From Candidatus Lokiarchaeum ossiferum (GTDB lineage Archaea > Asgardarchaeota > Lokiarchaeia > Sigyniarchaeales > Promethearchaeaceae), in assembly GCA_025839675.1 (NCBI GenBank), contig CP104013.1, positions 4,980,001 through 5,012,000 of the forward strand: 32,000 bases of DNA, read 5' to 3'. Positions 414 to 30,941 of this stretch are shown piece after piece. The translations under genes were made by a program, and so were the position numbers. The stretch's first letter is position 1. The number at the start of each line of letters is the position of its first letter. A model generated the notes under the pieces. That model saw nothing but the letters and a program-made list of their open reading frames with translations. It had not been told where the DNA came from and searched no databases.

Positions 414-1487
414 CTATTTTTGCAAAGTTTCTCTGAATATTTTCTTTAGTTGATTTCCTATTTTTTTTGGCGTACAATACTGAAGATATGTTTTATATCC
501 TTCATGAGCAATTTTGGTTCTCAATATTGAATTTGTATATAAAGTAAGAATTGAATTTGCAAGTGATTCTGGATCTTCCGCTTTACAGAGTATTGCATTA
601 TGTCCGTTTGTGAATAACTCCCGAATTGCTGGGTGATTGGATGATATAATTGCCTTTTCCAATGCTATTGCAGCATAAATCTTATTTGGAATTACAATCT
701 GAGACTTAATAGAATTACCAAAAATACCCAAAATGATATCCGCTCTATTCAATTCATTGATCAATTGAGTTTCTTGCATGAAAGGAATTATTTCTACATT
801 GTTTAAATTATTTTTTAACTTGAATTCAAGCATTTCTCTGAACAGAATCTTTTTTGGATTTCCGCCGATTATTTTAAAATGGATTTCAGTTTGATTTAAC
901 AAAATTTTTGCAGCTTGGAATATAATCGGTATTCCTTGTAATGGAATATAGCTACCAAAGAAAGTAACTTGAAAATGTTGAGTTTTTGATTTTGAAATGC
1001 TATTTTCTTTTTCATAATCAGAACCAACGAAAACTCTGTGAATTTTTGATTTTGGTACTTGAATTTCTTCTGAAAAATAATTTCCATGGATCTTGGTGTC
1101 CGATATTAGTACATCGGCCATATTAAACGATAGGTTTTCAACAAATCGCAAGATATTTCCACGTAGACTATGTTTCGGAAACATATGGTAGTCGTTTACT
1201 TTAGTATTATATTGTGATATCAGCGGGTCATAAACAATTTTCTTTCTCTTTACACATTTGAGCAAAAGTGCTATGGGCATTGCTAAAATACTTGCTGGAA
1301 ATCCAATAAATATGATGTTATATTCTTCATTTAATGCTTTTTTAAGAAGCAGCCATTTTCTTTTGAAACTCCTTACATTGAAAATGTTACAATGAATTAC
1401 TTCGATTGAGTTTGCTTGTAATCCTTTCAAAATTATTCTATTTCTTGAATAATTTTGATGATAGGAACCAAAAAATAGTGCTTTCAC
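414..1487 (-). CDS. GT-B fold glycosyltransferase (group-1-like)
   Basis: 357-aa ORF. The N-terminus MKALFFGSYHQNYSRNRIILKGLQANSIEV and the C-terminal block IPNKIYAAIALEKAIISSNHPAIRELFTNGHNAILCKAEDPESLANSI resemble the nucleotide-sugar binding half of GT-B enzymes. The GTG start overlaps the upstream TGA stop (GTGA at 1487..1484), which suggests translational coupling to the giant membrane protein gene. Confidence 0.7.
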   Translation of the reverse strand: MKALFFGSYHQNYSRNRIILKGLQANSIEVIHCNIFNVRSFKRKWLLLKKALNEEYNIIFIGFPASILAMPIALLLKCVKRKKIVYDPLISQYNTKVNDYHMFPKHSLRGNILRFVENLSFNMADVLISDTKIHGNYFSEEIQVPKSKIHRVFVGSDYEKENSISKSKTQHFQVTFFGSYIPLQGIPIIFQAAKILLNQTEIHFKIIGGNPKKILFREMLEFKLKNNLNNVEIIPFMQETQLINELNRADIILGIFGNSIKSQIVIPNKIYAAIALEKAIISSNHPAIRELFTNGHNAILCKAEDPESLANSILTLYTNSILRTKIAHEGYKTYLQYCTPKKIGNQLKKIFRETLQK

Positions 1488-4400
1488 TCCCTCACATCCA
1501 TATTATTTCGCTTATTCTCAATTTTCTGATACCAGAAATAAATTACTCCTAATATTATTGCAGACAATAAATAGAAAGGGAGGGCATGAATATCATCATA
1601 AAATGGATTTCGTTCATTAGTTTCATTTTCATTGAAAACGATTTCTTCCATTTCTCCTTGAATTACTTCAATATTTCGTATAATTATAAACGGATCCCCA
1701 AGATCGAGCGTTGTTTTTATATTTCCTAAGTATATACGGTTTCTTAATTCAGACGATGTCTCATAAAAACTGTTTCGCCAATTTATGAATTGCATTTTTT
1801 TTGCATTAATTTCAGGTTCTCTTATGTAACAATAAGATTGGTCTGAATTAATTTGTATACTTTCAATACTTGTAAACAAATGAGTTTTATTTTGATTCTC
1901 GAAAGAAATTACAGAATCCAATGCATTCTGGAAATTAATGCCAATTTGAGTAAAGAAACTTTCAATATAATAGCTAATTCCGGTAGACAAATTCATTTCT
2001 GTCCCCAAAATTGTAAAATTTGATGATCTTAAATCTAAATTCGACAAATTTGAAAAGGATTCTGAAGTTTTATTATTATATTGTATTATAATCTCATCAA
2101 AAATCATATCTTGCGGAAATAAAATGACATCCGTTTGTATTTCAGGATCATCAATTATAATTTGATCTGCCATTCCAATATACTGGTCATTCCAATCATT
2201 ATTTGTCATCTTCGTTAAATTAACCATTTGAAACAGTTCTTCATAAAAATTATATTCTTCATAAAATGATTCATTTAATTTATCAAAAGCTTGTAAAAAT
2301 GGAACTAAATTCAAATATGATATTGTTCCTAAGCCTAAATCTTTTTCAATCATATATGGAGATATTTCATTATTTCCTGCTTTAAAATTCCATATTTTTG
2401 TTAAATTTTCTAGTGTCAATAATTTTTTTTGTGGAACTGAGATTTCAGTTGGTAGATTTATCGAAATACTTTGATTATTTTCTATAATATTTGAGCTAAT
2501 GGTGGAATTTTCATTTGAGAATAAGAAATCGGAAAAATAACCGTCTTCTTGAGTATTTAATACTATTAGATCTCCTCCGTTGTTAACAAAATCCATGAAT
2601 CGTGACATTTCGCCAAAATTTGTAATATTTGGTTCGAGTTCTAAGGGATCAGTTGGAAGGATTATTGTTTTTTTATCATAAATTTGTGAATCAGAACTCA
2701 AATATGCTGAGTAGTTGATGAACGAAAGCGATAGGAAAAGATATCCAAGATATTGATCTGAAAAGTTTCCAACCTCATTCGAAGGTAAGATGAGCGCATT
2801 TTCACTTCTAATTAAAGGAAAAGATGGTTTGGTTGAATTAAAGATCTCAATTTCTGCATTTTGAAATAAAATTTGTTGAGAATTAATATAATCAAGAAGA
2901 AAACTGCTCGAGCGATTTGCCAATGATATGCTTTCATTTGAAGAAAGAAAGATGTAGGGATGTTCAACTTCTGTTGACTTAAATAAATAACGCAGATCCA
3001 TATCTGGTGTTGTGGCATTGTATAATTTATCATTATATTGATACATATTTGCATACCCTGCCGAATACACTGTTCTTTGTGATTTTCTCTCCAAAGTAAC
3101 TACCCAAGAATTAACATCCGTATTCCCGATTTTAATTAGATTATCCACAGCTTCCAATTCGTTATCAGTAAGCTGATATTCTGATTGAAAACGATCTAAA
3201 GTCTCGTTTTCAATGTTGAATACTGCCATTAATGAATTTGATGTTATGATCATTCCTAAAAATAAAGTTGAAATGAAAGTCTTCTTATTTATTTTCCAAC
3301 TACTTTTCAATTGAATATCTTTTAGGAAATCTATAATTGCATATGGTGCAATTAGACATAATCCAAGAAAAATGAATAGTAAAAACCGATTTTCATAATA
3401 CCCCGTAGAAAAGATAAAAACATTAATGAAAGATACGAATCGACCAAATAAAAATGCGTAAAGAACGAATATGAATATAATGATCATTTCTGCTTTCATT
3501 TTTCCTTCTTTGTACAAAAATAACATTCCTAATAACCCAAATAAACCCGTAAATCCCAGTTTAAATGAATATGTAAATAATGGTAGGATGGAATTTGAAT
3601 TAAGTAAGTAGGCGTTAAACCAATAAGCATACATTCCTGCCGTAATCATACCAACAACATAGAGTGTAGTTATGATTTTTAACATTTTGATAAATTTTTC
3701 ATCCCATCCCGGTAATTCTAGAGTATTTTGAATTTTATCTTCATATTTTCTTAACCATTTTCTTGAAACAAATTCAGTTATGACCAAAAATAAAATTAAA
3801 CCAAGTATTATTAAGAGTACCTTATTATCTATAAGATAGTCAAAGAAACTTGATGAAATGAGTGAATAGATCATATAAATTGGTGTAAGAAAACCGAGAG
3901 AGATTATTATTGTATGATTAATTTTTGTGGTTTTTAATTTTGGTATGATATTTAAAATACCTAAAAACCCACAAAATAGAATTCCTTCCGCGATATGAGT
4001 AAGAAAAATGCCAACAAACAATAGAGCAACTATCAAATGGTTACAAAATGCTTGAATTTTTGAGATTTGTTTATTCTGAGTCTCGTCTTTGATGGATTTC
4101 AATATTATGGAAAATAGAAACAAAAGCATGTTAAAGGCCATAATGGAAGGCACATTCCACAATCCATATAGAGAATTTATTGAGAAATAGGTAACCGCAT
4201 TTGTCACACCGTATAGAAAGGTTTGCGATATCGAAGGAATTAAAACTTTTAAAATTATTACAAAAAAAAACCCTATTCCTCCACTATTATTGCTGAAAAA
4301 TAACCATGTTGCAAACATTGGTATTCTATAATCCAATTTTGAGAATAAAACCGATGCAAATTGATAAAAAGATAAAATAAGGGTTAAATTTGAAAAAATG

Positions 4401-5224
4401 AGGATAGTGTTGATTTTTAAATAAGTGGAATTTGAAATGAAAATAAAAGCCGACTCATATAAATTTGCAAGGAGATAAGGCATCCGATATTCCGAAGGTT
4501 TTTTTCCCAAAATGACACTCCAACCGAAATGTCGAGAAATATCAGCTGAAACACTTCGGGCGATGTTTGGATATAAGACAATATAAATAGATATAAAAAA
4601 ACCAATAATCAGTAATAAACCGGTTAATTCTGCAACTTTCAATTCTATTTTTGAATTGGGATCATTTATGGACTCTGCTTTTTTTTGATTTGAAAATTCA
4701 ACATAAGTCGAAAATATACTACAAAGCAACAGAAGTAAAATAAAAATAATTGTTCTTAATGAAAAATCCATCCAAATTAACGATAGCCACATAAGACCAG
4801 ATAAGATATAACTAACAAAGAGTAATATCAAGAATGATTGAATTCTCGTAAATTTTGCATGCTTTTTAATTAGTTGAAGAATTAAATTTCCGGGAATAAC
4901 TGATATTGCAAGATAGGATAATATTCCAGATATGACGGTTGGATATACTTTAAAAATGTGAAATGAAAGAAGAATACTTGGGATGGATATTATAAGGAAA
5001 TACTTGATAAATTGAAGATATCTATTTGAAACCCTCTTAAAATGGTATGTTCGATTTAGAAAAGACGAGGGATCCAAATAAAAATGAAAGAATACAATAA
5101 AACAAGTTTGAAAAATTATATAAATATACTTTAGAGGAGATCCGACCAGCCAGACCATTATAAGTGAAAAGAAGCCACAAAGGATGAAAATGATTGAAAA
5201 TTTGTTCTTTGAAATCTTTGACAA
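1484..5224 (-). CDS. Giant polytopic membrane protein A (1246 aa): about 650 aa multi-TM N-terminal region, about 550 aa extracytoplasmic domain, C-terminal TM anchor. Candidate GT-C-like glycosyltransferase/oligosaccharyltransferase (function inferred, family not recognised)
   Basis: Long uninterrupted ORF. Many hydrophobic helices occupy the first half. The Asn-rich soluble second half has many N-x-S/T sequons. A terminal hydrophobic helix ALPFYLLSAIILGVIYFWY is followed by a basic tail. It is a clear paralog of 23301..26981, with shared blocks DI(S/Y)RH, ESAFIF(I/L)SN, RIP(M/I)(F/L)ATW, H(I/V)AE, LGF(T/Y)GLFGLL and NGGDLI. The predicted start is TTG at 5224, with AGAGGA 9 nt upstream. No WWDYG (AglB/STT3) motif is present. 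Confidence 0.6.
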   Translation of the reverse strand: MSKISKNKFSIIFILCGFFSLIMVWLVGSPLKYIYIIFQTCFIVFFHFYLDPSSFLNRTYHFKRVSNRYLQFIKYFLIISIPSILLSFHIFKVYPTVISGILSYLAISVIPGNLILQLIKKHAKFTRIQSFLILLFVSYILSGLMWLSLIWMDFSLRTIIFILLLLLCSIFSTYVEFSNQKKAESINDPNSKIELKVAELTGLLLIIGFFISIYIVLYPNIARSVSADISRHFGWSVILGKKPSEYRMPYLLANLYESAFIFISNSTYLKINTILIFSNLTLILSFYQFASVLFSKLDYRIPMFATWLFFSNNSGGIGFFFVIILKVLIPSISQTFLYGVTNAVTYFSINSLYGLWNVPSIMAFNMLLFLFSIILKSIKDETQNKQISKIQAFCNHLIVALLFVGIFLTHIAEGILFCGFLGILNIIPKLKTTKINHTIIISLGFLTPIYMIYSLISSSFFDYLIDNKVLLIILGLILFLVITEFVSRKWLRKYEDKIQNTLELPGWDEKFIKMLKIITTLYVVGMITAGMYAYWFNAYLLNSNSILPLFTYSFKLGFTGLFGLLGMLFLYKEGKMKAEMIIIFIFVLYAFLFGRFVSFINVFIFSTGYYENRFLLFIFLGLCLIAPYAIIDFLKDIQLKSSWKINKKTFISTLFLGMIITSNSLMAVFNIENETLDRFQSEYQLTDNELEAVDNLIKIGNTDVNSWVVTLERKSQRTVYSAGYANMYQYNDKLYNATTPDMDLRYLFKSTEVEHPYIFLSSNESISLANRSSSFLLDYINSQQILFQNAEIEIFNSTKPSFPLIRSENALILPSNEVGNFSDQYLGYLFLSLSFINYSAYLSSDSQIYDKKTIILPTDPLELEPNITNFGEMSRFMDFVNNGGDLIVLNTQEDGYFSDFLFSNENSTISSNIIENNQSISINLPTEISVPQKKLLTLENLTKIWNFKAGNNEISPYMIEKDLGLGTISYLNLVPFLQAFDKLNESFYEEYNFYEELFQMVNLTKMTNNDWNDQYIGMADQIIIDDPEIQTDVILFPQDMIFDEIIIQYNNKTSESFSNLSNLDLRSSNFTILGTEMNLSTGISYYIESFFTQIGINFQNALDSVISFENQNKTHLFTSIESIQINSDQSYCYIREPEINAKKMQFINWRNSFYETSSELRNRIYLGNIKTTLDLGDPFIIIRNIEVIQGEMEEIVFNENETNERNPFYDDIHALPFYLLSAIILGVIYFWYQKIENKRNNMDVRE

Positions 5225-5299: not shown

Positions 5300-6316
5300 C
5301 TAAAGTTTATAAAGATAAAAAAGCAACTTTGCATAAAAATTGAGGAATCTGAATGTTATTGATTTAGAATCCACTTCATTGAATATCCCTTCCATACTAT
5401 AGTAATTATCGAAGATATTATTTTGCTTTTCCTTTGATCGCCATATTTTCAACATATTTTTGACAAGATACTGAAAAATTTTTATTCTTTCTCTCAAAAA
5501 TCCTTTGCCAATTGCGAAAACCAAATGAAAAGGCTCAAATAACAACTGCACTAATAACATTTTCTTTCGATTTTGTGCATGTTCTAAACACATCATTAAT
5601 CGATTGCGTTCATGATAAAAGTATTTGAATTTACCTAATTTATATCCTTCATCATTTTTCAGATGGAGTAATCTTATTGAATTGTCCACATATTGCATGC
5701 AATCTATCATTGATGCTCGTATTGAAAAATCGATATCCTCGTGATACATGAAATATTCTTCATCAAATCCATGCAGTCTTTGAAATAATTGCTTTTCTAT
5801 CAAGAAGCAACATCCTGAGGTAATCATCGTTCTGCGGATTTTACTTGTTTTAGAGTAATCTGGATTTGAAAACCCTAAGAAATTGATTGTTCTTCTCGAA
5901 AACTCTAAAATCCCTGTAGGATTGCAAATTCTTGGACCAATAATTATTTTTTCCGTTCTTTTTTCTCTTTTTAATCGCAAATATGTATTAAACAACTTTT
6001 CGATGAAATTAGGGGATATTTCAACATCTGGATTTATAATTATTACATAATCACCATTTGCTTTTTCTACTGCTATATTATATCCAATGGAAAATCCTAA
6101 ATTCTCTTCAAATCCATAAATACGTATCTTTTCTGTATTGAGCTTATTCTCAGTTAAATAGGATTGAATGTTTAGTATCGGATCTTTTTTGCTCCACACC
6201 AAAACGATCTCATAATTATTATATAATTGTGTGGTTAAAGTTTGCATGCATTTAATGAAATTATTGTCTTGATAAAATCCTACTACTACAAAGGATATTA
6301 GTGGTTCATTTTTCAT
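5300..6316 (-). CDS. Family 2 glycosyltransferase A (COG1216 / WbbL-GlfT-like GT-A fold)
   Basis: 338 aa. It has ISFVVVGFYQDNN at the N-terminus, ENLGFSIGYN, IIINPDVE (DxD-equivalent) and HGFDEEYFMYHEDIDFSIR (ED motif), followed by ERNRL. It aligns along its full length with 28699..29733. Confidence 0.85.
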   Translation of the reverse strand: MKNEPLISFVVVGFYQDNNFIKCMQTLTTQLYNNYEIVLVWSKKDPILNIQSYLTENKLNTEKIRIYGFEENLGFSIGYNIAVEKANGDYVIIINPDVEISPNFIEKLFNTYLRLKREKRTEKIIIGPRICNPTGILEFSRRTINFLGFSNPDYSKTSKIRRTMITSGCCFLIEKQLFQRLHGFDEEYFMYHEDIDFSIRASMIDCMQYVDNSIRLLHLKNDEGYKLGKFKYFYHERNRLMMCLEHAQNRKKMLLVQLLFEPFHLVFAIGKGFLRERIKIFQYLVKNMLKIWRSKEKQNNIFDNYYSMEGIFNEVDSKSITFRFLNFYAKLLFYLYKL

Positions 6317-6440
6317 GCTCTATTATCATAATCCTTCTCAAATAATAAAATTATAAGTTTTTCTTTTCCTAATTAAAATTGATTTTTCAATGAAATTCAA
6401 TAGAGCAAATTCTCTGATAAGAGAAAAGTGAATTTTGAGT

Positions 6441-6541
6441 ATGAAATTAGTTAAAATGCTTAAATTTTTATTACATTCCAAAGGATTTAAGAAGAGAAAA
6501 AAAACTCTTATAATAATTCACAAAATGAGAAAAAATTAAAA
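6441..6541 (+). repeat. Intergenic repeat copy A (about 100 bp), direct repeat of 8391..8495
   Basis: The first 60 nt align in register with only a few mismatches (atgaaattagttaaaatgcttaaatttttattacattccaaaggatttaagaagagaaaa vs atggaattagtttaaatccttaaatttttattgcattccaaaggacttcagatgagaaaa). After a short divergent stretch comes aattcacaaaatg(a/t)gaaaaaattaaaa. It ends 47 nt upstream of the beta-helix A start codon. Confidence 0.8.
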
Positions 6542-6587
6542 AACAATAATTTTACATAAATTATAGGAAATCATAAAAGGGCAAATC

Positions 6588-8375
6588 ATGAAAACTTTAA
6601 AAAAGAATCTTCCTATTGCAATAATTTCAATTATCTTCCTTTCCATGGCTATTTTCTGGATGGGAAAGAGCGATAATTTAGAAAATAATTCAATTAAAAT
6701 TAATCCTGCTGAGTTAAAAGATAAATCTCCCAATTTCATTCAAGAAATTCATTCTTCCATTTCAATTCAAGGAAATGATCAATTGGAAATTTTTATTGCA
6801 AATAACGGTTTAAATGGGGAGGGTTCAGCTTCATCACCATATATCATTGAAAATTATATAATTGATGCTACTTCATCTCACGGTATTTCTATACAGAATA
6901 TAACTAAGAATTTAATCATAAGAGAATGCGATATTCAAGATGGTTTTGACAACGGTAAATTTGGAATTTATTTAAGCAATTCAAGTAATATCTTAATTCA
7001 TGACAATCATTTTACCAGCAATTATTATGCCGTGATGCTATTCAAGTCTACTATCATCAATATTACAAACAATGTGATTTCACAAGCGGGAATTTATTTT
7101 AATGATTCTAATGAATGTTCTCTCTCTTATAATGAATTTAATCGCGCGAATTCTGCAACTGGGGGTGTTTGGTTACAAAATTCGGACAATAATTTAATTC
7201 AATTTAATGAAATTAAAGATTTAGAGTATCGTAAAGGCATATGTCTTTTTGATTCTCATTACAATATACTTAATGCAAATAAAATAAGCAATATCTATAT
7301 GGAACACGCGATTGATATCAGAAGATCTCATTCTAATATCATAACTTCAAATCAAATTAATAAATCTGTATGGATTAGTGCTATATATTTGCATGAATCA
7401 CAAAAAGCACATATAGAGAATAATTATATCTACGAAAATGGTGGAATGGGAATTTTACTCTATTATTCTGATTTCTTCAATATAACAGGAAACATCATAC
7501 GGTTCAATCTTGATTCTGGGATTTGTGTTGATCATACAATGGAAAGTTCCCTAACATTTAACTTAGTTACTGATAACGATGGTTTTGGGATTCATTTACT
7601 CTCCTTTATAAATCTTTTTCTTGAAGGTAATGAAGGAATCATCGGGTACGGTGATGATATACCTCCTGAAACAGATCCCATAATTACAAGTGATTCATCC
7701 ACTATTACACCTCCATCTACTTCTACTTCTTCATCTAACACTTCGTCTTCATCTATTTCTCAATCTATTGAAGAAAGTCGTCCCTCATGGGTTGAACTAT
7801 TTCTAATATTCACTACATTTTTTGTGATTTTCATTTTAATTTCACTTGTTTCATCCAAAAAAGACCAAAGCAACGAAAATCTGAATAATCAAGAAGTGGA
7901 AGAATTAGAATATTCCCTAGATAAAACAGTGGAGAATAATAATATGGAAAATTGGGAAATAGAGTCTATTTTTAATGATAATGTCTCTGATTCGCCTATA
8001 ATAGAAGAGCTAGAACCGAGAAATAGGATCGAAACCAAATTATTATCACCGGAACTTGATATCAAAGCAAATATTCAACCTCAAATTTCCTCTGATCATG
8101 AAATCCATATCTCGACTCAAAAGCATCTATTGGGGAATTTTAAAGATATTTTAAATGAAAAAAGAAAAATAGAAATTCCAATCCTAGCGTCTTTATTAAA
8201 TATTAGTGAAAAAGAATTATTGCTAAATCTTGTTTCATGGAGTCGAATCATCCCCTTTAAAATAGAAAATGGCATTATTGAAATGGAAATTCTCTCCAAT
8301 TTCATTGGGCTACTTGATAAACAATTTCAGGATTGGACTAAAAAAGGACCTAATGATAAGAAAATGGAAAAGTGA
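6588..8375 (+). CDS. Membrane-anchored right-handed parallel beta-helix (PbH1/NosD-like) surface protein A with Ser/Thr-rich stalk, TM helix and about 170 aa cytoplasmic tail
   Basis: 595 aa. The N-terminal signal anchor is LPIAIISIIFLSMAIFW. Repeats of the type N-x-I-x-x-N-x-I...GI-x-L fit PbH1 beta-helix turns. The stalk is TSDSSTITPPSTSTSSSNTSSSSISQS and the TM helix is WVELFLIFTTFFVIFILISLVSS, followed by a long charged tail. It is a paralog of 27244..28494. Confidence 0.8.
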   Translation: MKTLKKNLPIAIISIIFLSMAIFWMGKSDNLENNSIKINPAELKDKSPNFIQEIHSSISIQGNDQLEIFIANNGLNGEGSASSPYIIENYIIDATSSHGISIQNITKNLIIRECDIQDGFDNGKFGIYLSNSSNILIHDNHFTSNYYAVMLFKSTIINITNNVISQAGIYFNDSNECSLSYNEFNRANSATGGVWLQNSDNNLIQFNEIKDLEYRKGICLFDSHYNILNANKISNIYMEHAIDIRRSHSNIITSNQINKSVWISAIYLHESQKAHIENNYIYENGGMGILLYYSDFFNITGNIIRFNLDSGICVDHTMESSLTFNLVTDNDGFGIHLLSFINLFLEGNEGIIGYGDDIPPETDPIITSDSSTITPPSTSTSSSNTSSSSISQSIEESRPSWVELFLIFTTFFVIFILISLVSSKKDQSNENLNNQEVEELEYSLDKTVENNNMENWEIESIFNDNVSDSPIIEELEPRNRIETKLLSPELDIKANIQPQISSDHEIHISTQKHLLGNFKDILNEKRKIEIPILASLLNISEKELLLNLVSWSRIIPFKIENGIIEMEILSNFIGLLDKQFQDWTKKGPNDKKMEK

Positions 8376-8973: not shown

Positions 8974-9909
8974 ATGAAAATGAAAAAAAGAAATAATATT
9001 GATAAAAATCCTTATGAAAACCCCATTCTAATTAACTTATTTGCGAAATATGATACTTTATGGGAACTATGCCCAAAAAAAGTAATGAGATTCCTTGAAA
9101 AAAAAATAAAACCATATGTAAAAAGAAATATTCAATATTTAGGTGAATTTGGTTATGAGTTGATTGCAGTTATTCCTTTTGCTTACTGGTTACATTTAAA
9201 TGGAAAACTTCTTTCGACAAGAAGTGCAAAGGATACAAAATGTTTGTACTATTTCTCAAAGTATCATGTAGAAATAAATAAAAAGAGGAAGTTTATCAAA
9301 GTTTCAAATTTTCCTCTGAAAGATATCCATATTCCTTCAATAAATACAAGTAAATGGTGTCCTCCCCCATATAAAAAAATTTATAGAAATTCTAAATTCC
9401 TTTGGGGAAAACCAATTTGTGTAATTTGCAATAAATTTACGGAAGAATGGGGCGGGAAACCTATCAATTTTTTATCTATTGAAATTTTGAAAGAAATATT
9501 TGATTTATTGAAATCAAAATATCAAATTATATACAATCGCCCTTTAAGCAAAAATATTGTTGCAGATGATCAAAAAGAAATAAGTTTTCCCGATATGCAA
9601 TTAATAGAAGAAAAATATCCAGATATTCAAACTATACAAGATTTGGCAATTAATAATGAAGATTTATCATTCAACGTTCTTCAAATGATGCTTTATGCAA
9701 ATTGCGATCATTTTATTTCCGTTCAAGGCGGAAGCTCTGTATTTTCAAGCTTTTTTGGAGGTAAAAACATCATTTTTGCAAAAGAAGGAGGAGAATTGAG
9801 GCATAATTCATTTAAGTGGTACAATAAATTTTCAGGATCAACCATTTTCCATTTGAACGATTATTCAAAACTAATTGAAACACTAAAACGAGAGTATTTA
9901 AATGAATGA
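8974..9909 (+). CDS. Uncharacterised protein, possible GT-B-like glycosyltransferase, translationally coupled to glf
   Basis: 311-aa ORF. Its last 8 nt overlap the glf start (9902..9909). GEFGYELIAVIPFAYWL and HFISVQGGSSVFSSFFGGKNIIFAKEGG loosely resemble GT9/GT61-type motifs. No confident family assignment is possible by eye. Confidence 0.5.
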   Translation: MKMKKRNNIDKNPYENPILINLFAKYDTLWELCPKKVMRFLEKKIKPYVKRNIQYLGEFGYELIAVIPFAYWLHLNGKLLSTRSAKDTKCLYYFSKYHVEINKKRKFIKVSNFPLKDIHIPSINTSKWCPPPYKKIYRNSKFLWGKPICVICNKFTEEWGGKPINFLSIEILKEIFDLLKSKYQIIYNRPLSKNIVADDQKEISFPDMQLIEEKYPDIQTIQDLAINNEDLSFNVLQMMLYANCDHFISVQGGSSVFSSFFGGKNIIFAKEGGELRHNSFKWYNKFSGSTIFHLNDYSKLIETLKREYLNE

Positions 9910-11020: not shown

Positions 11021-11021
11021 T

Positions 11022-11996: not shown

Positions 11997-12168
11997 TTTA
12001 CAATCCTTTTTTTTTTTAAAAATAATGAATTATTAAATATTTGAGAAATTAAGAAGTTGATTAATTTTTGCAGTTTCTTCAGTTCAAAAGTAATAAATAC
12101 TCGAATATTTCTCTTTTCTGTGATTGTCAGTTAAATCAAAGTTCTATTTTGTACTGATTATCTTTATA

Positions 12169-13395: not shown

Positions 13396-13565
13396 AAAGT
13401 AATTATTTGTTGCCTAAATTTTAATTTTATGGTATATAGGAAGCTTTACAGCATAATCCTCATTAATTTTAGATGTAAAGATGTATAAATGAATTATTTT
13501 CAGTTTTACTTGTTCAAAAAAACTCGAATAGTAATATCAATTTGAAGTAAAAGTCTTCCTTTTCT

Positions 13566-14636: not shown

Positions 14637-14730
14637 AATAAATTGAATTATAGAATAAATAATAAATTTTTGAAATCAATTGACATTTGTTTCAAAAAAA
14701 TATTATTATTTGAATATTTCAGATTACTTG

Positions 14731-17583: not shown

Positions 17584-17884
17584 ATATTAACCCTAAATTA
17601 TTTATAAAAGAAAAATTTTTCTTTATTCCTTTTACTTTTTTAATATCTAAATTGGAAATAAACCATTTTCATAAATTTAATTGATTCAATCATTAATCAT
17701 TGGAGTAATCAATAATTGATCATTGAATTGGTAAGATTTTTTTCTTGGTTTTTCGAGAACGTTATCTTCTAGATTTTCATTAAATGATTGTTCTTACATG
17801 CGTTTCAAAAAACCAAATTCACCGGTAGATCATATAAAACTTGAAAGAAAAAAGTTAAGAAAGAAATTACGTTCTTTCTTTTAT

Positions 17885-19144: not shown

Positions 19145-19202
19145 TTTAATTATCTGGGTAATAAAAATATACCTCATCTATTAAAAAAGTAGGAAATATC
19201 AA

Positions 19203-20396: not shown

Positions 20397-20506
20397 AAAT
20401 TCATTGAATCATTTTTTTTATCTGATTTAACATTATTGCTAAGGTCCAGATTGAAGAAAAATTTCGGCAATGTCTCCATAAAGATTAAATTACCAACATT
20501 TTGGAT

Positions 20507-21838: not shown

Positions 21839-23274
21839 CAGTTCCCAATGAAATATCCATTTTTACATTTTTATGCCCCATCATTAACTTATTGACTAAA
21901 TATTTGAGTTATAGGTTGATTGAATCAGAAAATTCATCGATGAGCCAATCTCGATATTCTTGGAATGTTATGGCTTTATTGGAGTCTAATTCACCTCGTT
22001 CGATTTGCCAAAAATTGAAGAGCAAATATTTCCCAATTTCCGCAAATAATCGTATTCCATCATAATTCGACCGCCATATCCCTTTATGATCATCTACATC
22101 TCTAAAAGCGGTCTCAATTTGCCATTTCATTTTATAATACCGCTTGATGGTATATACGAATGATTTTGAATGGAATTGAGGGGCAATTGTGGTGATCAAT
22201 GCATAAATTTGCTCTGATGCATCAGTCAAACTTAAATTATTTTGGCGATAGGCATTTTTAATTGCTGCTAAGGATTGATTTCCACGGGCAAACAGGAGTA
22301 CCCAACATCGCATTTTTTGCGTTATACCCCTTTTTTTGCTTTTGTTCCTATCTCGTATTGTTGAGTGCGCCCCTTTTTTTGATCTAAGTAATGCCGCTTG
22401 CAATTTTTTAATTGCGAATAGTCCTTTGCGGGTGTGATAACATCAACATTGCAAATTTTGAAAGATTTGAGCACATTATGTCGATAATATTCCCGATCTA
22501 CAACACAGACTTTGATATTTAATCCAAGTTCTAAAAGCCAATCAGTAATCTGAAGCATAAAGGGAATTTTTGATTCCCCTTTGGCGACGTAGTGGCATCC
22601 AATAAATAATGATTTCTTGCTGCCATGGATCATAGCTCCATGATAATGACAAATACGTCTTGTACCTTTAACCATTTTACTTCCTTTGATTAATGGATCC
22701 CATCTTCGTCCCCAATAACCAAGATAGGTTAAATCAAACTCTAAAACAAAATTAGTTTTTCGTGCCTCGGCAAGAAATATAAGATGTATCATCTTTTCAA
22801 ACACCAATTTATAGATTTTTTCTACTGATACCAAGGTTTGGTCTCTTAGCCAGTCATTTATAGTCGTTTGGTGAGGAAATGCACGCGATTGGCGTCCATC
22901 TAAAAAAATTTGGGGTGTAAATCCAGAATATTTCATTGCTCAACGGTTCAACTTTTCAGATGCATGATGGATGGAGACTCCACGAATCCAACCATAATAG
23001 AGAATTGCAATGATGTCATCCAATACCCATTTCCGTCCGATGAGAGTTGTCGGAAGACCAAGAGCATATCTGACTGACTTAGCAAGATTTTTGAAGAAAG
23101 AAATCTTATTAAAATTAGGATAACGTGTTCTAAATTGGGGAATTTGGTGCACGGCTTGAGTGCATTGGTTCATACGATTACTCAAGCATCCTTTTATTTT
23201 GAGTGCATTGATGCAAATACTAGATAAATTATTTATGGTCAATTACGATATTTTTGTCGAATCAGTTGGAACTG
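21839..23274 (-). mobile_element. IS4/ISH-like insertion sequence (about 1.44 kb), apparently decayed
   Basis: It contains a fragmented DDE transposase. The tentative terminal inverted repeats are CAGTTCC at 21839..21845 and its complement at 23268..23274, with 11 of the first 13 nt matching. Both ends are flanked by ATAAAA (21833..21838 and 23275..23280), a possible 6-bp target duplication. That match is only weak evidence in AT-rich DNA. Confidence 0.6.
21909..23242 (-). pseudogene. DDE transposase (IS4-type, DDE_Tnp_1-like) broken into three ORFs
   Basis: The 100-aa ORF (TTG start) ends at an in-frame TGA (22940..22942). Only one codon separates it from the 204-aa ORF in the same frame. 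The 204-aa and 164-aa ORFs overlap over 22322..22403, with the downstream part in the -1 frame. DDE-type blocks are present: FVLEFDLTYLGYWG, CVVDREYY and YYKMKWQIETAFRDVDD (the Y-x2-R/K-x3-E motif of the IS4 family). Confidence 0.75.
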
Positions 23275-23300: not shown

Positions 23301-26300
23301 TTAGTATGTGAGATATGGAATATCCAGATTAACTACCCTCAAAATATCTTCATAATACGGAATTCCTGTTTCTTGGTAAATTTTTAATTGAATTGCTTTA
23401 AAAATGGGATATATATTTATGTAGTAGAGATTCCCCATACCGATTGGTTGAGTAATAATGAACGGAACTTCTTCATCGTATGAATTTGAATAAGAAGCTA
23501 AGATTGAAGCATTTGCTGGTGTAACACTTAATAGAATCAATTCGATTTCATACAAAAGATCAATAGATTCAGTTTCACCTATCAGCTTATTAGATGCACT
23601 CGTACTAAATGACATTTCTATCATTTCTTTAGCGAATGCATTATATCCATTTGAGTTAAAAATGATTAAGTCTCCTCCATTCTCGATATAATCATAATAA
23701 TCTTCGATGTTTCTACTGGATTTAACTGCATAAAATGCTTCAAAATCTCGAAGATCAAAATTGACAATAAAACTAGTGGAATAGGTCGTGTATTGGATTC
23801 CAAAAACATTCGAATTTGAAGTATTATTGTTTGTTGCATGAAAATTATTTAGCGAAAAATCTATTCCTTGTTCATTTATTGATATATCTACAATTAGATG
23901 ATCCCTTAATTTCCAATTTATGCTTGTATTAACGCCCGGCCATGTTTGAGGTAATATTTGATCTCCAACAATGAAATAATAATGAATAAAACCCGAAGGT
24001 GAAAATAAGTACACTATTTTGTTGAAACTCATGTCATCATTCTGGGAAAAAACAAACTCTAGGTAATTATTTACATTTTTATCCATATCTGCTATTGAAA
24101 TTTGAAACCTGGCAGTTAAATTGGAAATGGGATAAGGACACATTAAAGTTCCACTTGAAACATATGGATCTTTAGAATAAGAGTTAATATTGAACTCAGT
24201 TGCTGTTTGAAAATCAAAATTTCCTCCACAACTTTCCCATTCATAAAAGGATGGGGTAATATTCAAAGAATCATCATTTAGGGGGTCGAAAGCTAAAAAT
24301 AATTTATCATAATCAAACAAAGATCCATCTAAATCATTGATTGTCGAGAAATTTCTATATGCTTGGCTGAATAGATTCATATTTTGGACTTTTTGGGAAA
24401 AAGGAAGATAATTATCCTGAGGAAAAACTATTTTCAAATCACTATTCGATTGAGGTGGTGAAATTTTCGGAATGCGGTAAATGGTGTAATCTTCTTCACT
24501 ATAAACTTTATGGAAAATATTTAACATCTCTTTGAAATAATCATGGTATCGCTCGTTGATTTTAGAAACATTTCCTTGGGTTAAATATAAATAGGAATTT
24601 TCAAATCCTTCATTTTTCATGGTATATTGCTGTAAAAATATGCTCTCTGTGAGTGTATTGTAAGAAAGTTTTTCTCCAAGAACTAAATTTAACACTATGC
24701 GTGAATTTGATTCAGATTTATTAATCATTTGATAAGTGAATTCATCCAGTGTAATAATATAAGCTGAATTATCTTCTTCAAGAAGAGTTCTAATTGCATT
24801 TATTCCCATTTTGTCCTCATCCCATAAAACCGGTAAGTATTGTTTGGCATTTTCCCCATTTCGATAACTATATTCTAACCCAAATAACACTGTTGAATAA
24901 TTGGATATCAAGAGAAAGAATAGAACGAGATATTTGTATAACGATCTGAAATGTATTTCGTTTAATTGTAGATTTTTTAATTTGTGTTTGTCAAAATGTA
25001 TCAAACCATAATAAATCCCTGTAGCAATAAATGGAATGATTATAAACACTCCCAATCTTCTCTCAAAATAGTAGATTGGTCCGGTTAATATATGTAATCG
25101 AACATAAGTTAGCACAATTCCAAAACCCATACAGAAGATACCAAAAATCAGTAAGAAATTATATTTAAAATCAATATTTTTATTTTTAACACTAAAATAC
25201 AGATATAGTAATCCAAATAATCCATAAAATCCCAGTCTAACCGGATGGAAAAACCAAAGAACTTGTCCTGATTCTAAGAAATTCTCTATGCTTAGTGATT
25301 CAGAATCCCAAACAAAAGTCCAGTACACTAACCCGCTGATAAGTAATAGCAAAGCAAATAAAATTAAGATTTTGACTACCTTATGCCATCTTTCATGGGG
25401 AAAATATCGATTATCTGCTGGTGATTTTTCAATTCTGATTAAATAATTTGTTAATCTTGTGTTAGTGATCTTTTCCTTATTCCTTACAATAAATTTCCAT
25501 CCAAGATGAATAATCATAGTTAGAATTAGAAAAGCCAAGGTAACATATAGTAAATAGAAGTAAAGAGGAAAAATCCACTCTTCTATTGCTTTTGACAAAT
25601 AATTATATAATTTATAAAATATTATGATGCTTATATAGGAAAGAATCATAGAAAACAATGTTTCGGTTGATTTGATCCCTTTCCCTTTAAAGAAAAATAA
25701 GAATACTCCCAAAAATATTCCAAAAATGGTAGCTTCAGCCACATGGGATAGGAACATTCCAACTTGCATAATTGTCAATAATGGAATAAATAATTTCCCG
25801 GGAATTGAATCAATCTGAATTAATGTCATAATTCCAAACAAAATAATAAATGATGGAATAATGGGTGTGTAGTAAGATGGAGAAAATCCATAATATAATG
25901 AGTTTAATGTTTGGGAATTTGCGAGATTCAAAGCATTAGAAAAAGGAAGCTGATTGATTAACCTAAGTTTAATGAAATATATCCATCCAAGTCCTCCCGT
26001 TGCACCAAGCATGTAAGCCCAAGTCGCAAGAATTGGAATTCTTTTATCAATTTTATTAAAGAAACGTTTCATCGCAGTATAGAAGACAATGGGTAAGATA
26101 TAATTTATTAATAACAAAGTAGTCTGATTCACTACTATTGAACCGTTAGATAAAAAGATAAATGCTGATTCATGTGAATGGGCCACTGTATAGAACCAAG
26201 AATAATATTGAAGAAAATAATCATTTATTGATTCTCCAAATAGCACACTATATGAATAATGGCGATATATGTCAGGAGAAATTGAATAGACAATTTGCGG

Positions 26301-27243: not shown

Positions 27244-28494
27244 TCAATTTTTGAATTTCTTTTCTCCTTCATTTGTTTTCCATTCTTGAAACGAATTATC
27301 AAGTTTTTCTAAAAATTCCTCAAGATTGTTTTTATCAATTGTACCTGGATAGTTGTTTTTTGGACCCGGTTTATTATTTTTCACGATAATGCGTGCAAAG
27401 AGAGAAATAAAGATAAGTAAGCCTATTGAACCTAATACAATGAATATAACAGTGTTTTCAGAAATAATCGAGGTGCCCGAAGAATTACTATCCAGATTCG
27501 TCTGACTGGATGAAGTGGAACTTTCTCCATCCGAATTTTCTGAAATGGGGTTTTGGGGATCAGATGTAGAAGTTGTATATGTTGTAGATGTTGGGGTTGT
27601 CCAAGTTGTATCATATCCATTTCTATCATAGAACTCTTGTGAGAAATAAAACTCATTTAAACTTATATTATGAAATATATTATCTACCAAATTTACGTCT
27701 GAACTATCACCAAAATAAATCCCGTAATCTGATAAAGAAATCATATTTCTTTGTATCAAATGATCTGAGTCGCAGACTATAATACCACGTTCTCGATTAT
27801 TGTATATCACATTATCTTGTATAATATGGTTCGTTCCACTAAGTAAAATGCCGCAATATGGGTTGTTAGATATATAATTATTGCTTATGGTACAATATAT
27901 GGATGTCCCTATACCAATTCCATAGTTTAGGTTATTAGAAACATTGCTATTTGATATTGTTATAAATTTGGAATTAGATATCCACATTCCTCCATGTGGA
28001 CCATTTTCTAATATATTATAGGAAAAAACACAGTTCTCTGAAAAAAAAGTCCAAATACAATGTTCTTTTGAATCATTTATCAATGTATTTTCCACTTTTA
28101 TATTTTTTGAATTCCAGATTTTAATTCCTGTCATCGAATTCAAAACTGTGCAATTTTTAATAATTCCATAGGCCGTCGAGCTATTAATAAATATACCATC
28201 TGATCCATTTCCATCTATAATCAAATCTGAAATCATATAAGGATTTTCAAAAGTTCCTAATCCTGAGGCTTCACAATAGATGCTCCAATTATTTCCATCA
28301 ATACTTATGGGTGGATGAGTATTTCCTGCTATTGGAGAGTGGATATGGAATGTTTCAGAATTCTTGAATGGCTCTGTTTTAGAATTACTTTGGGTCAAAT
28401 TGATTGATGATCTTATCGAGAAAATCGATAATATTACTAAAAATGAAATGATCACAGGTTTCAAAAATTTATTTTGCATCTTCAGAAGTATCAT
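27244..28494 (-). CDS. Membrane-anchored right-handed beta-helix (PbH1/NosD-like) surface protein B with Ser/Thr-rich stalk, TM helix and 45-aa cytoplasmic tail
   Basis: 416 aa. The signal anchor is PVIISFLVILSIFSI. PbH1-like repeats are present (NCTVLNSMTGIKIWNSKNIKVENTLI...). The stalk is TTWTTPTSTTYTTSTSDPQNPISENSDGESSTSSSQTNLDSNSSGTS, the TM helix is VIFIVLGSIGLLIFISLFARIIV, and the tail ends LEEFLEKLDNSFQEWKTNEGEKKFKN. Confidence 0.8.
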   Translation of the reverse strand: MILLKMQNKFLKPVIISFLVILSIFSIRSSINLTQSNSKTEPFKNSETFHIHSPIAGNTHPPISIDGNNWSIYCEASGLGTFENPYMISDLIIDGNGSDGIFINSSTAYGIIKNCTVLNSMTGIKIWNSKNIKVENTLINDSKEHCIWTFFSENCVFSYNILENGPHGGMWISNSKFITISNSNVSNNLNYGIGIGTSIYCTISNNYISNNPYCGILLSGTNHIIQDNVIYNNRERGIIVCDSDHLIQRNMISLSDYGIYFGDSSDVNLVDNIFHNISLNEFYFSQEFYDRNGYDTTWTTPTSTTYTTSTSDPQNPISENSDGESSTSSSQTNLDSNSSGTSIISENTVIFIVLGSIGLLIFISLFARIIVKNNKPGPKNNYPGTIDKNNLEEFLEKLDNSFQEWKTNEGEKKFKN

Positions 28495-28698
28495 TGAGTT
28501 TTACCTTAAAAAATTAATCATGATCATGCCTTAATTTCCTATTTGTTGAGTAGAGTTATTCATGATTTCTCCCATTCATTATCGCTCCAATTATCCTAAA
28601 AGAAAATTTTTAAGTAATTGGTTTAATTTAAGCAATAATTAAATCCAAAGTATAATTATGAATCTTAATATCATAACATAATGGTTTAATTTTTCAAT

Positions 28699-29733
28699 AT
28701 GTCTCAAAATGGCTCAAAAAATATTGATATTTCTGTAATTATTGTTGCTTTTGGTTTTCCAGATGCAAAATTAAAAAAAACCCTCGCCAATATTACAAAT
28801 CAATCTTATTCAAGTTATGAAATTGTGCTGATATGGGCAAAATTTCCAAAAACCCTTGATATTAATCAATATTTTAAATCCAACTCCATTAATTCTTCGA
28901 AAATTCAATTTCATCATTTTGAAGAAAATCTTGGATATGCTAAAGGAAATAACCTCGGGTCAAAATTTGCCAAAGGAGACAAAATTGTTATCATGAATCC
29001 CGATGTTGAAACGCTTCCAGCATTCCTCACAGAAATGGTACATACTTTTGCATACCTTCAAAAACTAAATCGAACGGATAAAATTGTTTTAAATCCCCGT
29101 ATCTGTAATAGGTTCGGGAATATTGAATTTGCTAAAATATACTTGAACTTTTTAGGTTTCTCCAATAATAATTTTCCAATGTCTGATAAAATCCAAAGGA
29201 CGATGATCTCTTCTGGATGCACATTTTTAATTTCCAAACGTTGTTTTCACCACTTTCATGGATTTGATGAATCTTATTTTATGTATCATGAAGATACGGA
29301 TTTATCCTACCGTTTACAAAAAGCGGGATTTAAACTTTATGTGGATAATAATATCCCCGTTTGGCATCTAAAAACTGATTATGAATATAAAATGACCGAC
29401 TTTAAATTCTTTTATTGGGAACGAAATCGCTTAAAATTCACGCTTGAAAACGCCTCTAACTTGAAACGGTTACTTCTCTGTCAACTGTTATTGGAACCCT
29501 TGATGTTCGTGTATGCACTTAAAGCTGGACTGATAAAACAAAAATTTATGATTTACAAATACTTCATTCGTAATTTTCTTTTACTTAATCACAAGAATCA
29601 TAAAGGAGTTCTGAATTCCTATGAAAATTACTCTTCTATGGAAGGAATTATCAATGAAGTCCCTCCAAAATCCATTGTGTATCGATCAATTAAATTCTAT
29701 GTGAAATTGCTATTTTATTTATATCATTCATAA
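28699..29733 (+). CDS. Family 2 glycosyltransferase B (COG1216 / WbbL-GlfT-like), paralog of 5300..6316
   Basis: 344 aa. Blocks shared with GT2 A: YEIVL(V/I)W, FEENLG, NPDVE, PRICN, NFLGFSN, RTMI(T/S)SGC, HGFDE(E/S)YFMYHED, SMEGI(F/I)NEV and the terminal KLLFYLY. Confidence 0.85.
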   Translation: MSQNGSKNIDISVIIVAFGFPDAKLKKTLANITNQSYSSYEIVLIWAKFPKTLDINQYFKSNSINSSKIQFHHFEENLGYAKGNNLGSKFAKGDKIVIMNPDVETLPAFLTEMVHTFAYLQKLNRTDKIVLNPRICNRFGNIEFAKIYLNFLGFSNNNFPMSDKIQRTMISSGCTFLISKRCFHHFHGFDESYFMYHEDTDLSYRLQKAGFKLYVDNNIPVWHLKTDYEYKMTDFKFFYWERNRLKFTLENASNLKRLLLCQLLLEPLMFVYALKAGLIKQKFMIYKYFIRNFLLLNHKNHKGVLNSYENYSSMEGIINEVPPKSIVYRSIKFYVKLLFYLYHS

Positions 29734-29825
29734 ATCATGGAATCCTTATTTTTCATAGATTACTAAGTCTTTTCCCATCATCAAATTTTATTCTCTGTTT
29801 AAGATGGGAATATACTTACAAAAAT

Positions 29826-30941
29826 ATGGGTCTTCTTATGAAAATTGCGTTTCTTTCGTATTTTTATCTCGGATTGGATAATTTCGGAGCCAGCACTTAT
29901 GTGCAGAAGTATTTAAATGTTCTTTCGCGTATGAACAATGTTTCAATTGATTTTTATTGTCCGTATCCTATCCAATCGTTTAAAAAAATTAAAAATGTGC
30001 ATTATATCTATATCAAAACCCTTAATATTCCTTTTATTCGATTCTTTCAGTTTGCTTTCAAAATATCTCAATTGCTTAAGCTCAGAAAGTATGATATCGT
30101 TCATTCCAGTTCAGGGGCGGGAATGTTTGTCAAAAATGTGGATTTTGAAACATTTTATCATTACGAACCATTTTCGATCCCTAACTTCAATGCGTGGATT
30201 GGTTATACCCTATCGCGTGTCAGTTTGAAACGAAGCCGCCATATTTTTGCAATCTCAGAACAATCAGTAACAGAACTAATTCAATTTGAAAATCGTCGCC
30301 GTGAGCTGATTTCTATTATAACAAATCCAATTGATTGCATGATTTTCAATCAAAATCATAATTTTTCTACCAAAAAGAAGGAAATACTGAAAGGAAAAGA
30401 CGAAAAATTGATTCTTTCGGTTGGTCTTTTAATTAATCGGAAAAATCCCTTTTTGCTCATAAAAACTCTCGATTACATCATAAAAAAAGGAATTAATGCA
30501 AAATTACTTATTATTGGCAACGGTCCTCTAAAACAAAAAATGATTCTTGCTGCTAATGAGAAAAAAATTCTCGATAATATCATTTTTATACATTCTACGG
30601 GAGAAATTTACCCTTATTATTGCATGGCAGATCTCCTGCTCACTCCCAGCAAAAAAGAAGGATTTGGGTTCCTCTATCTGGAAGGACCTGCTTGTGGATG
30701 CAAATTTGTCGGATTTCCTACGGGAATATCTCCCGTTGCTGCTAAAAAAAATTTGGGCATTGTTGTGAATGATGAAGTGTCGTTTATGGAATCTGCACAT
30801 CAAATATTGCTTTCTGGGGACCGAACCGGTCAAGAAGAGTTTAATTTCATCTATAATAATTTTTCCATGGAAAAATTTGGAAAAAGACTGATTTCCAGTT
30901 ATCAGAAATATTTAAATATAAGAGATGGTCGAAAATTTTAA
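29826..30941 (+). CDS. GT4-family (group 1) glycosyltransferase
   Basis: 371 aa. PSKKEGFGFLYLEGPACGCKFVGFPTG contains EX7E. The alternative start at 29838 (MKIAFLSYFY) looks more typical of the family. Confidence 0.8.
   Translation: MGLLMKIAFLSYFYLGLDNFGASTYVQKYLNVLSRMNNVSIDFYCPYPIQSFKKIKNVHYIYIKTLNIPFIRFFQFAFKISQLLKLRKYDIVHSSSGAGMFVKNVDFETFYHYEPFSIPNFNAWIGYTLSRVSLKRSRHIFAISEQSVTELIQFENRRRELISIITNPIDCMIFNQNHNFSTKKKEILKGKDEKLILSVGLLINRKNPFLLIKTLDYIIKKGINAKLLIIGNGPLKQKMILAANEKKILDNIIFIHSTGEIYPYYCMADLLLTPSKKEGFGFLYLEGPACGCKFVGFPTGISPVAAKKNLGIVVNDEVSFMESAHQILLSGDRTGQEEFNFIYNNFSMEKFGKRLISSYQKYLNIRDGRKF

Follow-up and report, generated by a model that had tools for sequence, protein, structure and literature searches.

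Extracytoplasmic glycosyltransferases of the GT-C type have 8-14 transmembrane (TM) helices and carry conserved residues on the membrane's outer face (PMC10920833). Their hallmarks are a catalytic aspartate just past the first TM helix and a periplasmic helical element at the same place (PMC11127046). The closest known counterparts are the oligosaccharyltransferases (OSTs) PglB, AglB and STT3 (CAZy GT66, GT-C_A), the very large enzymes EmbA/B/C, AftD and GT136 (Citrobacter ORF12), whose carbohydrate-binding modules (CBMs) bind polysaccharide acceptors (PMC11127046), and the Wzy polymerases and WaaL ligases (GT-C_B, clans GT-C1 to GT-C3; PMC10920833). In haloarchaea, O-linked disaccharides have been documented on surface proteins with Thr-rich stalks, the responsible enzymes being unknown (PMC8241124). 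In this study, a stretch of 32,000 nucleotides from Candidatus Lokiarchaeum ossiferum (GCA_025839675.1, contig CP104013.1, positions 4,980,001 to 5,012,000; the window) was analyzed, which encodes two giant polytopic proteins, giant_L and giant_R, each in a set with a GT2 glycosyltransferase, a GT4 glycosyltransferase and a beta-helix protein (Table 1). The original prediction regarded these sets as dedicated modules for the O-glycosylation of surface proteins. This is not supported by the evidence, whereas it is rather probable that the giants form a family of GT-C-type extracytoplasmic transferases that finish a surface glycan.

Neither giant_L nor giant_R has a match in Pfam, NCBIfam or the PDB sequences beyond sub-threshold ones at chance level. 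In an exhaustive profile search of 1.84 billion representatives, 871 relatives were found (439 at E <= 1e-30; family representatives counted at 50% identity), nearly all of them 1,200-1,500 amino acids (aa) long. A word-indexed homolog search badly undercounts the family, giving 6+6+3 matches versus these 871. A scan of genomes with a tighter family alignment returned three loci, all from Bathyarchaeia, and an ortholog of giant_R with 42% identity is present in a second Lokiarchaeum genome, thus the family occurs in at least Lokiarchaeia and Bathyarchaeia. Profiles of 13 and of 102 members found nothing relevant among the PDB sequences, the sole match (PRA1, E 0.06) being due to chance, and no paper describing the family was found in the literature. 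The giants appear to be a new, large and unannotated archaeal family, while the other components of the locus are ordinary. Regarding the gene model of giant_L, the public gene calls start inside the 1246-aa open reading frame (ORF), whose N-terminus lies at 5078-5224 on the minus strand, and are 1197 aa (NCBI) and 1102 aa (Logan) long; an NCBI protein has 100% identity to giant_L. These starts are probably too late and would remove one or more TM helices, because the homology to giant_R and to other members begins already at residue ~8 of the longer ORF.

The architecture of the giants is unusual, as 19 TM helices are combined with an accessory domain of the GH42-like type and with CBM inserts that vary. 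In giant_L the predicted TM helices cover residues 1-676 and are followed by an extracytoplasmic domain (~677-1210) and a C-terminal TM anchor (1212-1230). Hydropathy, an AlphaFold2 (AF2) model and a positive-inside test agree on the 19 TM helices and on the outside location of the C-terminal domain: in 102 members, lysine and arginine make up 22% of the proposed inside loops versus 4% of the outside loops, and the model of residues 1-690 has a predicted local distance difference test score (pLDDT) of 82 and a predicted TM-score (pTM) of 0.88. The first six helices form an N-terminal extension, for which a weak DUF1616 match was found in a few relatives. Helices 7-19 form a core of 13 TM helices. 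According to the DSSP assignment of the model, the first core helix (197-222) is followed by two outside helices (228-241 and 251-264), of which the first one starts with D228.

This aspartate is invariant in 102 of 102 members, which share only ~20% overall identity, and H410, E413, P548, E611 and R613 are conserved to 89-98%. All of these residues are located in outside loops on the side of the C-terminal domain. The TM architecture is the same in giant_R, which keeps the corresponding residues D237, H413, E416, E640 and R642. D228 together with the outside-loop His, Glu, Glu and Arg is therefore a candidate active site, as judged from conservation and the model. The helical outside element and the aspartate after the first core helix correspond to a feature of GT-C_A enzymes, and it can be assumed from the model that helix 197-222 is equivalent to TM1 of these enzymes.

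When the model of the giant_L TM domain was compared with the PDB using Foldseek, a probability of 1.00 was reached only for PglB (5ogl_A and 6gxc_A; TM-score 0.35, E 9e-3), a weak match of the model but the sole credible one. Wzy, WaaL or SEDS folds are absent among the top 50 PDB matches. A function as transporter was considered and rejected, as the matches to MFS and pyrophosphatase folds reach TM-scores of ~0.1 and probabilities of at most 0.33. The PglB match, the position of the aspartate and the helical element, and the conserved residues on the outer face together lead to the assignment of the giants as GT-C-type transferases, which is made with moderate confidence, the fold class itself being taken from one weak match. 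The earlier view of the giants as extracytoplasmic transferases rather than transporters is thus supported, also in the light of their glycan-operon context. From the structure prediction and fold search proposed earlier, a GT-C-type match and no credible transporter match were obtained, with the qualification that the PglB match is weak. In a search of the BFVD with the same model, the sole match was A0A514K2W1, an uncharacterized 326-aa protein of a Nitrosopumilus spindle-shaped virus, which resembles a part of the giant_L TM domain (probability 0.97, TM-score 0.52 normalized to the viral protein).

The resemblance to PglB, AglB and STT3 extends beyond the fold match, since a core of 13 TM helices is followed by a large extracytoplasmic C-terminal domain in both cases, the first outside loop starts with a conserved Asp, and the genes are located together with a Wzx-type flippase gene and genes for cytoplasmic glycosyltransferases that would build a lipid-linked oligosaccharide. 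In contrast, the giants share no sequence or profile similarity with these enzymes, have six additional N-terminal TM helices and lack an STT3 (PF02516) match, which was also not obtained for 33 relatives even at E <= 1. The WWDxG motif, which is cited for the C-terminal extracytoplasmic domain of Asgard AglB (PMC11284389), occurs in none of the 102 members (regular expressions WWD[YWF]G, WW[DE].G and W[WYF]D.G). Furthermore, the C-terminal domain of the giants is GH42-like with CBM inserts in relatives, unlike the peptide-binding domain of OSTs.

The outside domain of giant_L was modeled separately (residues 676-1246, pLDDT 82) and comprises alpha/beta domains, a beta-sandwich and the terminal TM helix. 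Its Foldseek matches are GH42 beta-galactosidases, GH164 mannosidases and a beta-1,2-glucosyltransferase (E ~2e-7). In our reading, the match falls on the non-catalytic GATase1-like and beta-sandwich domains of the GH42 and GH164 enzymes, because of the secondary-structure pattern of the model and hints of Glyco_hydro_42M and DUF4350. Among 33 relatives, nine carry a CBM_11 (best E 2e-7), and matches to Laminin_G_3, 3keto-disac_hyd and DUF4350 were found as well; the CBM_11 and ConA-like lectin modules sit at the place where giant_R has an insert of ~180 aa. These carbohydrate-enzyme accessory folds, the CBM inserts of the relatives and the missing WWDxG motif point to a glycan and not a peptide as the acceptor of the giants. 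In addition, 18 N-X-S/T sequons are present in the giant_L outside domain. The C-terminal part of giant_R (23301-24400, minus strand), which contains the ~180-aa insert, lacks the terminal beta-sandwich and the TM anchor of giant_L and most members, so that the two giants have diverged in domain architecture.

The giants are also comparable to EmbA/B/C, AftD and GT136, which are very large GT-C enzymes with C-terminal CBMs holding the polysaccharide acceptor (PMC11127046) and, from outside the membrane, modify a polymer of cytoplasmic origin. Glf, COG1216-type GT2s and the Wzm/Wzt exporter are also encoded in the window. Here, too, sequence and Pfam similarity is missing, and the C-terminal fold differs in being GATase1-like with a beta-sandwich, in archaeal proteins as opposed to bacterial ones. 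With Wzy polymerases and WaaL ligases, the giants have in common the conserved residues of the outer face and the role that they would fill. They are three times larger, yield no fold or Pfam match to these enzymes, and the placement of their invariant Asp behind a TM helix is of the GT-C_A type.

The genomic context of the giant genes was examined in about ten independent loci. In every one of them the giant gene lies within a glycan-assembly cluster, together with several GT4 and GT2 genes and with genes for methyltransferases and sugar-nucleotide enzymes. Frequently it is the final or penultimate gene, and translational coupling to a GT4 gene is also frequent. The operons of the Bathyarchaeia and metagenomic loci are co-directional. 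No orthologs of the window's beta-helix proteins or GT2s were found by tblastn in the loci L001-L013, i.e., in 0 of 8 independent loci outside Lokiarchaeum: the beta-helix proteins gave no match and the GT2s only generic ones of 23-25% identity. The only beta-helix-like neighbor of a giant outside Lokiarchaeum, in locus L003, has neither stalk nor anchor. In the second Lokiarchaeum genome, an 888-aa protein with beta-helix, PKD domain, Ser/Thr stalk and TM anchor is encoded ~5 kb from the giant_R ortholog, but the gene arrangement differs and the ortholog has no GT2 partner. Since the glycan genes are constant across these loci and the beta-helix/stalk neighbors are confined to Lokiarchaeum, the stable association is that of the giant with glycan-assembly genes, and the link to the beta-helix proteins is local to Lokiarchaeum. 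Of the neighborhood proposed originally, the glycan-assembly operon with GT4 and GT2 genes was thus recovered, while the ortholog of this particular GT2 and the beta-helix/stalk gene were not. A conserved four-gene module is therefore not supported, and neither is the role of the beta-helix protein as cognate acceptor of the giant, against which the carbohydrate type of the outside domain and the missing WWDxG motif also speak.

In four loci of the Bathyarchaeia type (L005, L008, L011 and L013), a GT4 ortholog with 38-61% identity between loci is encoded directly upstream of the giant or separated from it by a single gene, and the stop and start codons often overlap, which suggests a clade-specific functional pair of GT4 and giant in Bathyarchaeia. 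The idea of one orthologous GT4 that always accompanies the giant was rejected, as it applies to the Bathyarchaeia clade but fails across clades; this GT4 is unrelated to the GT4s of Lokiarchaeum.

Within the window, three of the four gene pairs are real paralogs with E-values far beyond chance, as originally predicted. The giants share 25% identity over 938 aa (E 4e-50) and a second matching segment in the C-terminal domain, GT2_L and GT2_R share 47% over 332 aa including the terminal KLLFYLY (E 8e-102), and the beta-helix proteins share 30% over ~200 N-terminal aa (E 4e-10) and a C-terminal tail motif. GT4_L and GT4_R, which had not been counted as clear paralogs, are not specifically related: both belong to the Pfam family GT4, with no specific similarity in BLASTP. 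The claim that similarity is visible only at the protein level is nearly true, except for three short GT2 stretches with 68-82% identity over 50-102 nucleotides (nt) of DNA. The divergent transcription of GT2 and beta-helix genes from an intergenic region of 200-270 bp was measured in both modules, and the place of the giant gene differs between them as described before, giant_L following GT2_L and giant_R following bhelix_R. An alignment of the two intergenic regions revealed no common element beyond AT-richness.

The beta-helix protein bhelix_L consists of a signal/anchor, a NosD-type right-handed beta-helix, a Ser/Thr stalk (nt 7671-7760), a TM anchor (nt 7797-7853) and a cytoplasmic tail of ~170 aa. 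In bhelix_R, the signal/anchor and the beta-helix are followed by the Ser/Thr stalk (nt 27511-27600), the TM anchor (nt 27394-27450) and a tail that is short. The Pfam matches to PF05048 and PF13229 lie above the gathering score (106.7 and 82.1 bits in bhelix_L, 69.0 and 88.3 bits in bhelix_R), whereas sequence searches of the PDB found nothing. The predicted Ser/Thr-rich stalks near the membrane are present in both proteins, with 67% and 57% Ser/Thr in windows of 30 aa, 12-20 residues ahead of the TM anchor. In this respect they resemble surface proteins of the haloarchaeal S-layer glycoprotein type, in which a stretch rich in Ser and Thr likewise adjoins the C-terminal membrane anchor on its outer side, but the ectodomain of the beta-helix proteins is a right-handed beta-helix of the NosD/CASH type and a glycosylation of the stalk is putative. 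Because this fold is common in polysaccharide lyases, hydrolases and epimerases, the beta-helix proteins may be enzymes rather than substrates. They are either glycan carriers or glycan-processing enzymes, added specifically in Lokiarchaeum. Both tails (8276-8375, plus strand, and 27244-27330, minus strand), of ~170 and ~50 aa, end in L..F...LD..FQ.W.K, a motif which may serve as docking site for a cytoplasmic partner.

The Pfam assignments of the cytoplasmic glycosyltransferases are above gathering for GT2_L (52.3 bits) and GT2_R (40.9 bits; 49.1 bits to PF13641) in the family PF00535 and for GT4_L (58.1 bits) and GT4_R (77.3 bits) in PF00534. The best partial NCBIfam match of GT2_L is the rhamnosyltransferase TIGR01556, and its PDB sequence matches are exclusively generic soluble GT-A enzymes, not GtrB or DPMS.

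Based on these results, the following pathway appears most likely. In the cytoplasm, an oligosaccharide would be assembled on polyprenyl (dolichol) phosphate as carrier by the GT2 and GT4 enzymes encoded around the giants, and the Wzx-type flippase of the giant_L operon or the central Wzm/Wzt transporter would move the glycan to the outer face. There, the giant would take the sugar or oligosaccharide off its lipid carrier and attach it to an extracellular acceptor. The transfer site would be formed at the membrane surface by D228 or D237 along with the His, Glu, Glu and Arg conserved in the outside loops, and the acceptor or growing product, most likely a glycan, would be bound by the large outside domain. 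The giant would thus polymerize, ligate or elaborate a surface polysaccharide or glycoconjugate. Within the one island of ~50 kb, each of the two copies would be responsible for a different glycan or a separate export route. Besides Wzx and Wzm, no other polytopic protein was found in the L. ossiferum island, which makes the giant the candidate for the polymerase or ligase.

Several observations weigh against such a pathway. No recognizable polyprenyl-phosphate-sugar synthase or initiating phosphoglycosyltransferase is encoded in the window, and a Wzx gene is found within 10 kb of the giant in only about three of ten loci (L001, L007 and L015). In the loci L005 and L014, unannotated polytopic proteins of ~500 aa are encoded, which could be the real polymerase or flippase. 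With 19 TM helices the whole giant exceeds the GT-C range of 8-14 (PMC10920833), into which only the 13-TM core falls, and giant_L and giant_R themselves have no CBM match. Furthermore, neither Pfam, NCBIfam and PDB searches nor hhalign provide a sequence or profile link to any GT-C family. The hhalign probability of the core profile is 1.1% for E. coli ArnT and at most 0.6% for E. coli WaaL, WzyE and RodA, the latter three being single-sequence targets of low power, and the comparisons to ArnT, WaaL, WzyE, RodA, WzxE and a DUF6541 protein of L003, all at or below 2.4%, are uninformative.

Among the alternatives, each giant could be a dedicated O-OST that transfers the Wzx-flipped glycan onto the Ser/Thr stalk of the adjoining beta-helix protein, which would make the four-gene set self-contained. 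Such an enzyme would account for the joint retention of giant, GT2 and beta-helix genes after the duplication in this genome, for the stalks of 57-67% Ser/Thr just outside the membrane in both proteins and for the related stalk protein near the giant_R ortholog of the second Lokiarchaeum; the best fold match is itself an OST, and the archaeal O-glycosylation machinery is still missing, since the statement that its enzymes are unidentified agrees with PMC8241124 (2021) and no newer report was found. It is nevertheless unlikely. Outside Lokiarchaeum the beta-helix and GT2 partners are absent from all eight independent loci, and the single beta-helix-like neighbor is devoid of stalk and anchor; a peptide-binding motif of the WWDxG type is found in no member, and the outside domain and its inserts are of carbohydrate-binding types. 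Moreover, adjacency in two paralogous modules carries little statistical weight, given that surface proteins of the beta-helix type may be frequent in these genomes. Quite unlikely as well is the broader claim that the giants are the missing archaeal protein O-OSTs and a new GT-C family that transfers a Wzx-flipped, dolichol-linked glycan to the Ser/Thr stalks of surface proteins anchored in the membrane, of which the cognate beta-helix proteins are encoded alongside in Lokiarchaeum.

A post-assembly decorating enzyme of the AglS, GtrC, GT136 or Emb/Aft type, which adds single sugars from a polyprenyl-monophosphate donor to a polymerized or attached glycan, e.g., as side branches on a Galf-containing polymer exported by Wzm/Wzt, has a somewhat better standing but is still rather unlikely. 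In EmbA-C, AftD and GT136, a GT-C domain is combined with a carbohydrate-binding domain at the C-terminus (PMC11127046), and most GT-C_A families use lipid-phosphate-monosaccharide donors (PMC10920833, Table 1). With its genes for Glf, GT2s of the COG1216 type and a Wzm/Wzt exporter, the locus parallels mycobacteria, in which galactan synthesis is followed by extracytoplasmic arabinosylation by GT-C enzymes. On the other hand, the neighboring GT2s are not DPM1-, GtrB- or ArnC-like and match soluble GT-A enzymes in the PDB, neither a polyprenyl-phosphate-sugar synthase nor a small flippase of the GtrA or SMR type was seen near the giants, the giants have no Pfam match to Emb/Aft families, and PglB, the best structural match, represents the one GT-C_A family that uses lipid-diphosphate-oligosaccharides. 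Very unlikely is a non-enzymatic giant, i.e., a structural, scaffolding or export component such as a polysaccharide platform or channel or a glycan-binding surface anchor. It would fit the missing match to any catalytic family, the non-catalytic accessory folds of the outside domain and the weakness of the PglB match, but the outside loops of 102 members at ~20% identity contain a cluster of one invariant residue (Asp) and four nearly invariant ones (His, Glu, Glu and Arg), which is typical of an active site and disfavors a scaffold, and the fit of transporter folds is far poorer than that of PglB. From the sequence, the preferred reading as a GT-C-type transferase that finishes the glycan cannot be told apart from a decorating enzyme with a monophosphate donor or a dedicated O-OST.

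The ORFs of the window were verified at the predicted positions and their proteins were scanned against Pfam (Table 1). Glycan-related genes fill nearly all of the window, which has a G+C content of 28-30%, and belong to an island of ~50 kb that extends past both of its ends in the source genome, with further GT2 and GT4 genes, a CapK-like gene and a VTC/CotH/DUF4956 trio in the flanks. The left operon continues into a Wzx-like gene, as predicted: positions 1-395 are the start of a Polysacc_synt_3 gene of 499 aa (L015 11083-12582; PF13440, ~13 hydrophobic segments), which begins 8 nt past GT4_L. The start of GT4_L and the stop of giant_L overlap by 4 nt, indicating translational coupling.

Table 1. 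Features of the 32,000-nt window of Candidatus Lokiarchaeum ossiferum.
Feature	Position	Strand	Details
Wzx-type flippase gene, 5' part	1-395	-	Polysacc_synt_3 (PF13440); last left-operon gene visible in the window
GT4_L, cytoplasmic GT-B glycosyltransferase	414-1487	-	Pfam Glycos_transf_1 1e-15, Glyco_trans_1_4 1.2e-15
giant_L, 1246 aa	1484-5224	-	
giant_L extracytoplasmic C-terminal domain	1595-3196	-	Alpha/beta (GATase1-like) domains and beta-sandwich
giant_L TM domain	3197-5224	-	6-TM N-terminal extension, then 13-TM GT-C-like core
D228 codon, candidate catalytic residue of giant_L	4541-4543	-	Invariance and DSSP of model
GT2_L, COG1216-type GT-A, first gene of left operon	5300-6316	-	PF00535 8e-14
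Left divergent intergenic region, 271 bp	6317-6587		
bhelix_L, 595 aa	6588-8375	+	Pfam NosD 1.5e-30, Beta_helix 4e-23
Central glycan-synthesis block	8974-21538		Pfam scans
Glf	9902-11020		Central block
GalE-type epimerase	11022-11996		Central block
Three paralogous GT4s	12169-13395, 14680-15963, 17798-19144	-, +, +	Central block
GT90-like gene (CAP10-type)	13566-14636	-	GT90 domain E 1.6e-17
Wzt	15967-16728		Central block
Wzm	16729-17583		Central block
Further GT4	19203-20396		Central block
ORF, family unassigned	20507-21538	-	Weak RXYLT1_C (E 1e-3) and GT47-like (0.03) matches
DDE transposase remnant, frameshifted	21909-23242	-	Pfam DDE_Tnp_1 on 2/3 ORF fragments
giant_R, 1226 aa	23301-26981	-	
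D237 codon, giant_R equivalent of the invariant Asp	26271-26273	-	
bhelix_R, 416 aa	27244-28494	-	Pfam Beta_helix 5.6e-25, NosD 5e-19
Right divergent intergenic region, 204 bp	28495-28698		
GT2_R, paralog of GT2_L	28699-29733	+	
GT4_R, GT-B glycosyltransferase	29826-30941	+	Pfam GT4

In the central block, the three GT4 paralogs flank the Wzm/Wzt ATP-binding cassette (ABC) exporter genes (15967-17583). They have long N-terminal extensions and share near-identical long blocks, e.g., NIGYGYWEL...KQFKYLDE.WAPSKFIY. The GT90-like gene and the ORF at 20507-21538 both encode eukaryote-flavored glycosyltransferases within an Asgard glycan island, the GT90 family being known mainly from eukaryotes. A second ORF without family assignment is also located within this block.

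Between the central block and giant_R, the frameshifted DDE_Tnp_1 transposase is left as three ORFs of 164, 204 and 100 aa that overlap or adjoin each other. The insertion sequence remnant hints at a rearrangement through which the right module was juxtaposed. To the right of the right module, a VTC-domain protein (31139-31876, plus strand), a CotH kinase-like protein of 949 aa and a DUF4956 protein form the trio (L017 2235-5843), beyond which additional GT2 and GT4 genes are located. A gene for a small GTPase of the Arf/Ras/Roc family (L015 18673-19728) adjoins a CDP-alcohol phosphatidyltransferase gene at the island's left edge.

Little is understood about the cell surface of Asgard archaea, and the analysis provides a useful lead for archaeal and Asgard surface glycobiology, the proposed O-glycosylation module itself not being demonstrated. 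The giant family is a concrete candidate for the extracytoplasmic step by which archaeal surface glycans are finished, be it as polymerase, ligase, decorating enzyme or O-OST, and it offers a testable candidate active site (D228, H410, E413, E611 and R613) and a cultured host. If confirmed, it would constitute a new CAZy glycosyltransferase family and give a handle on the surface glycobiology of Asgard archaea.

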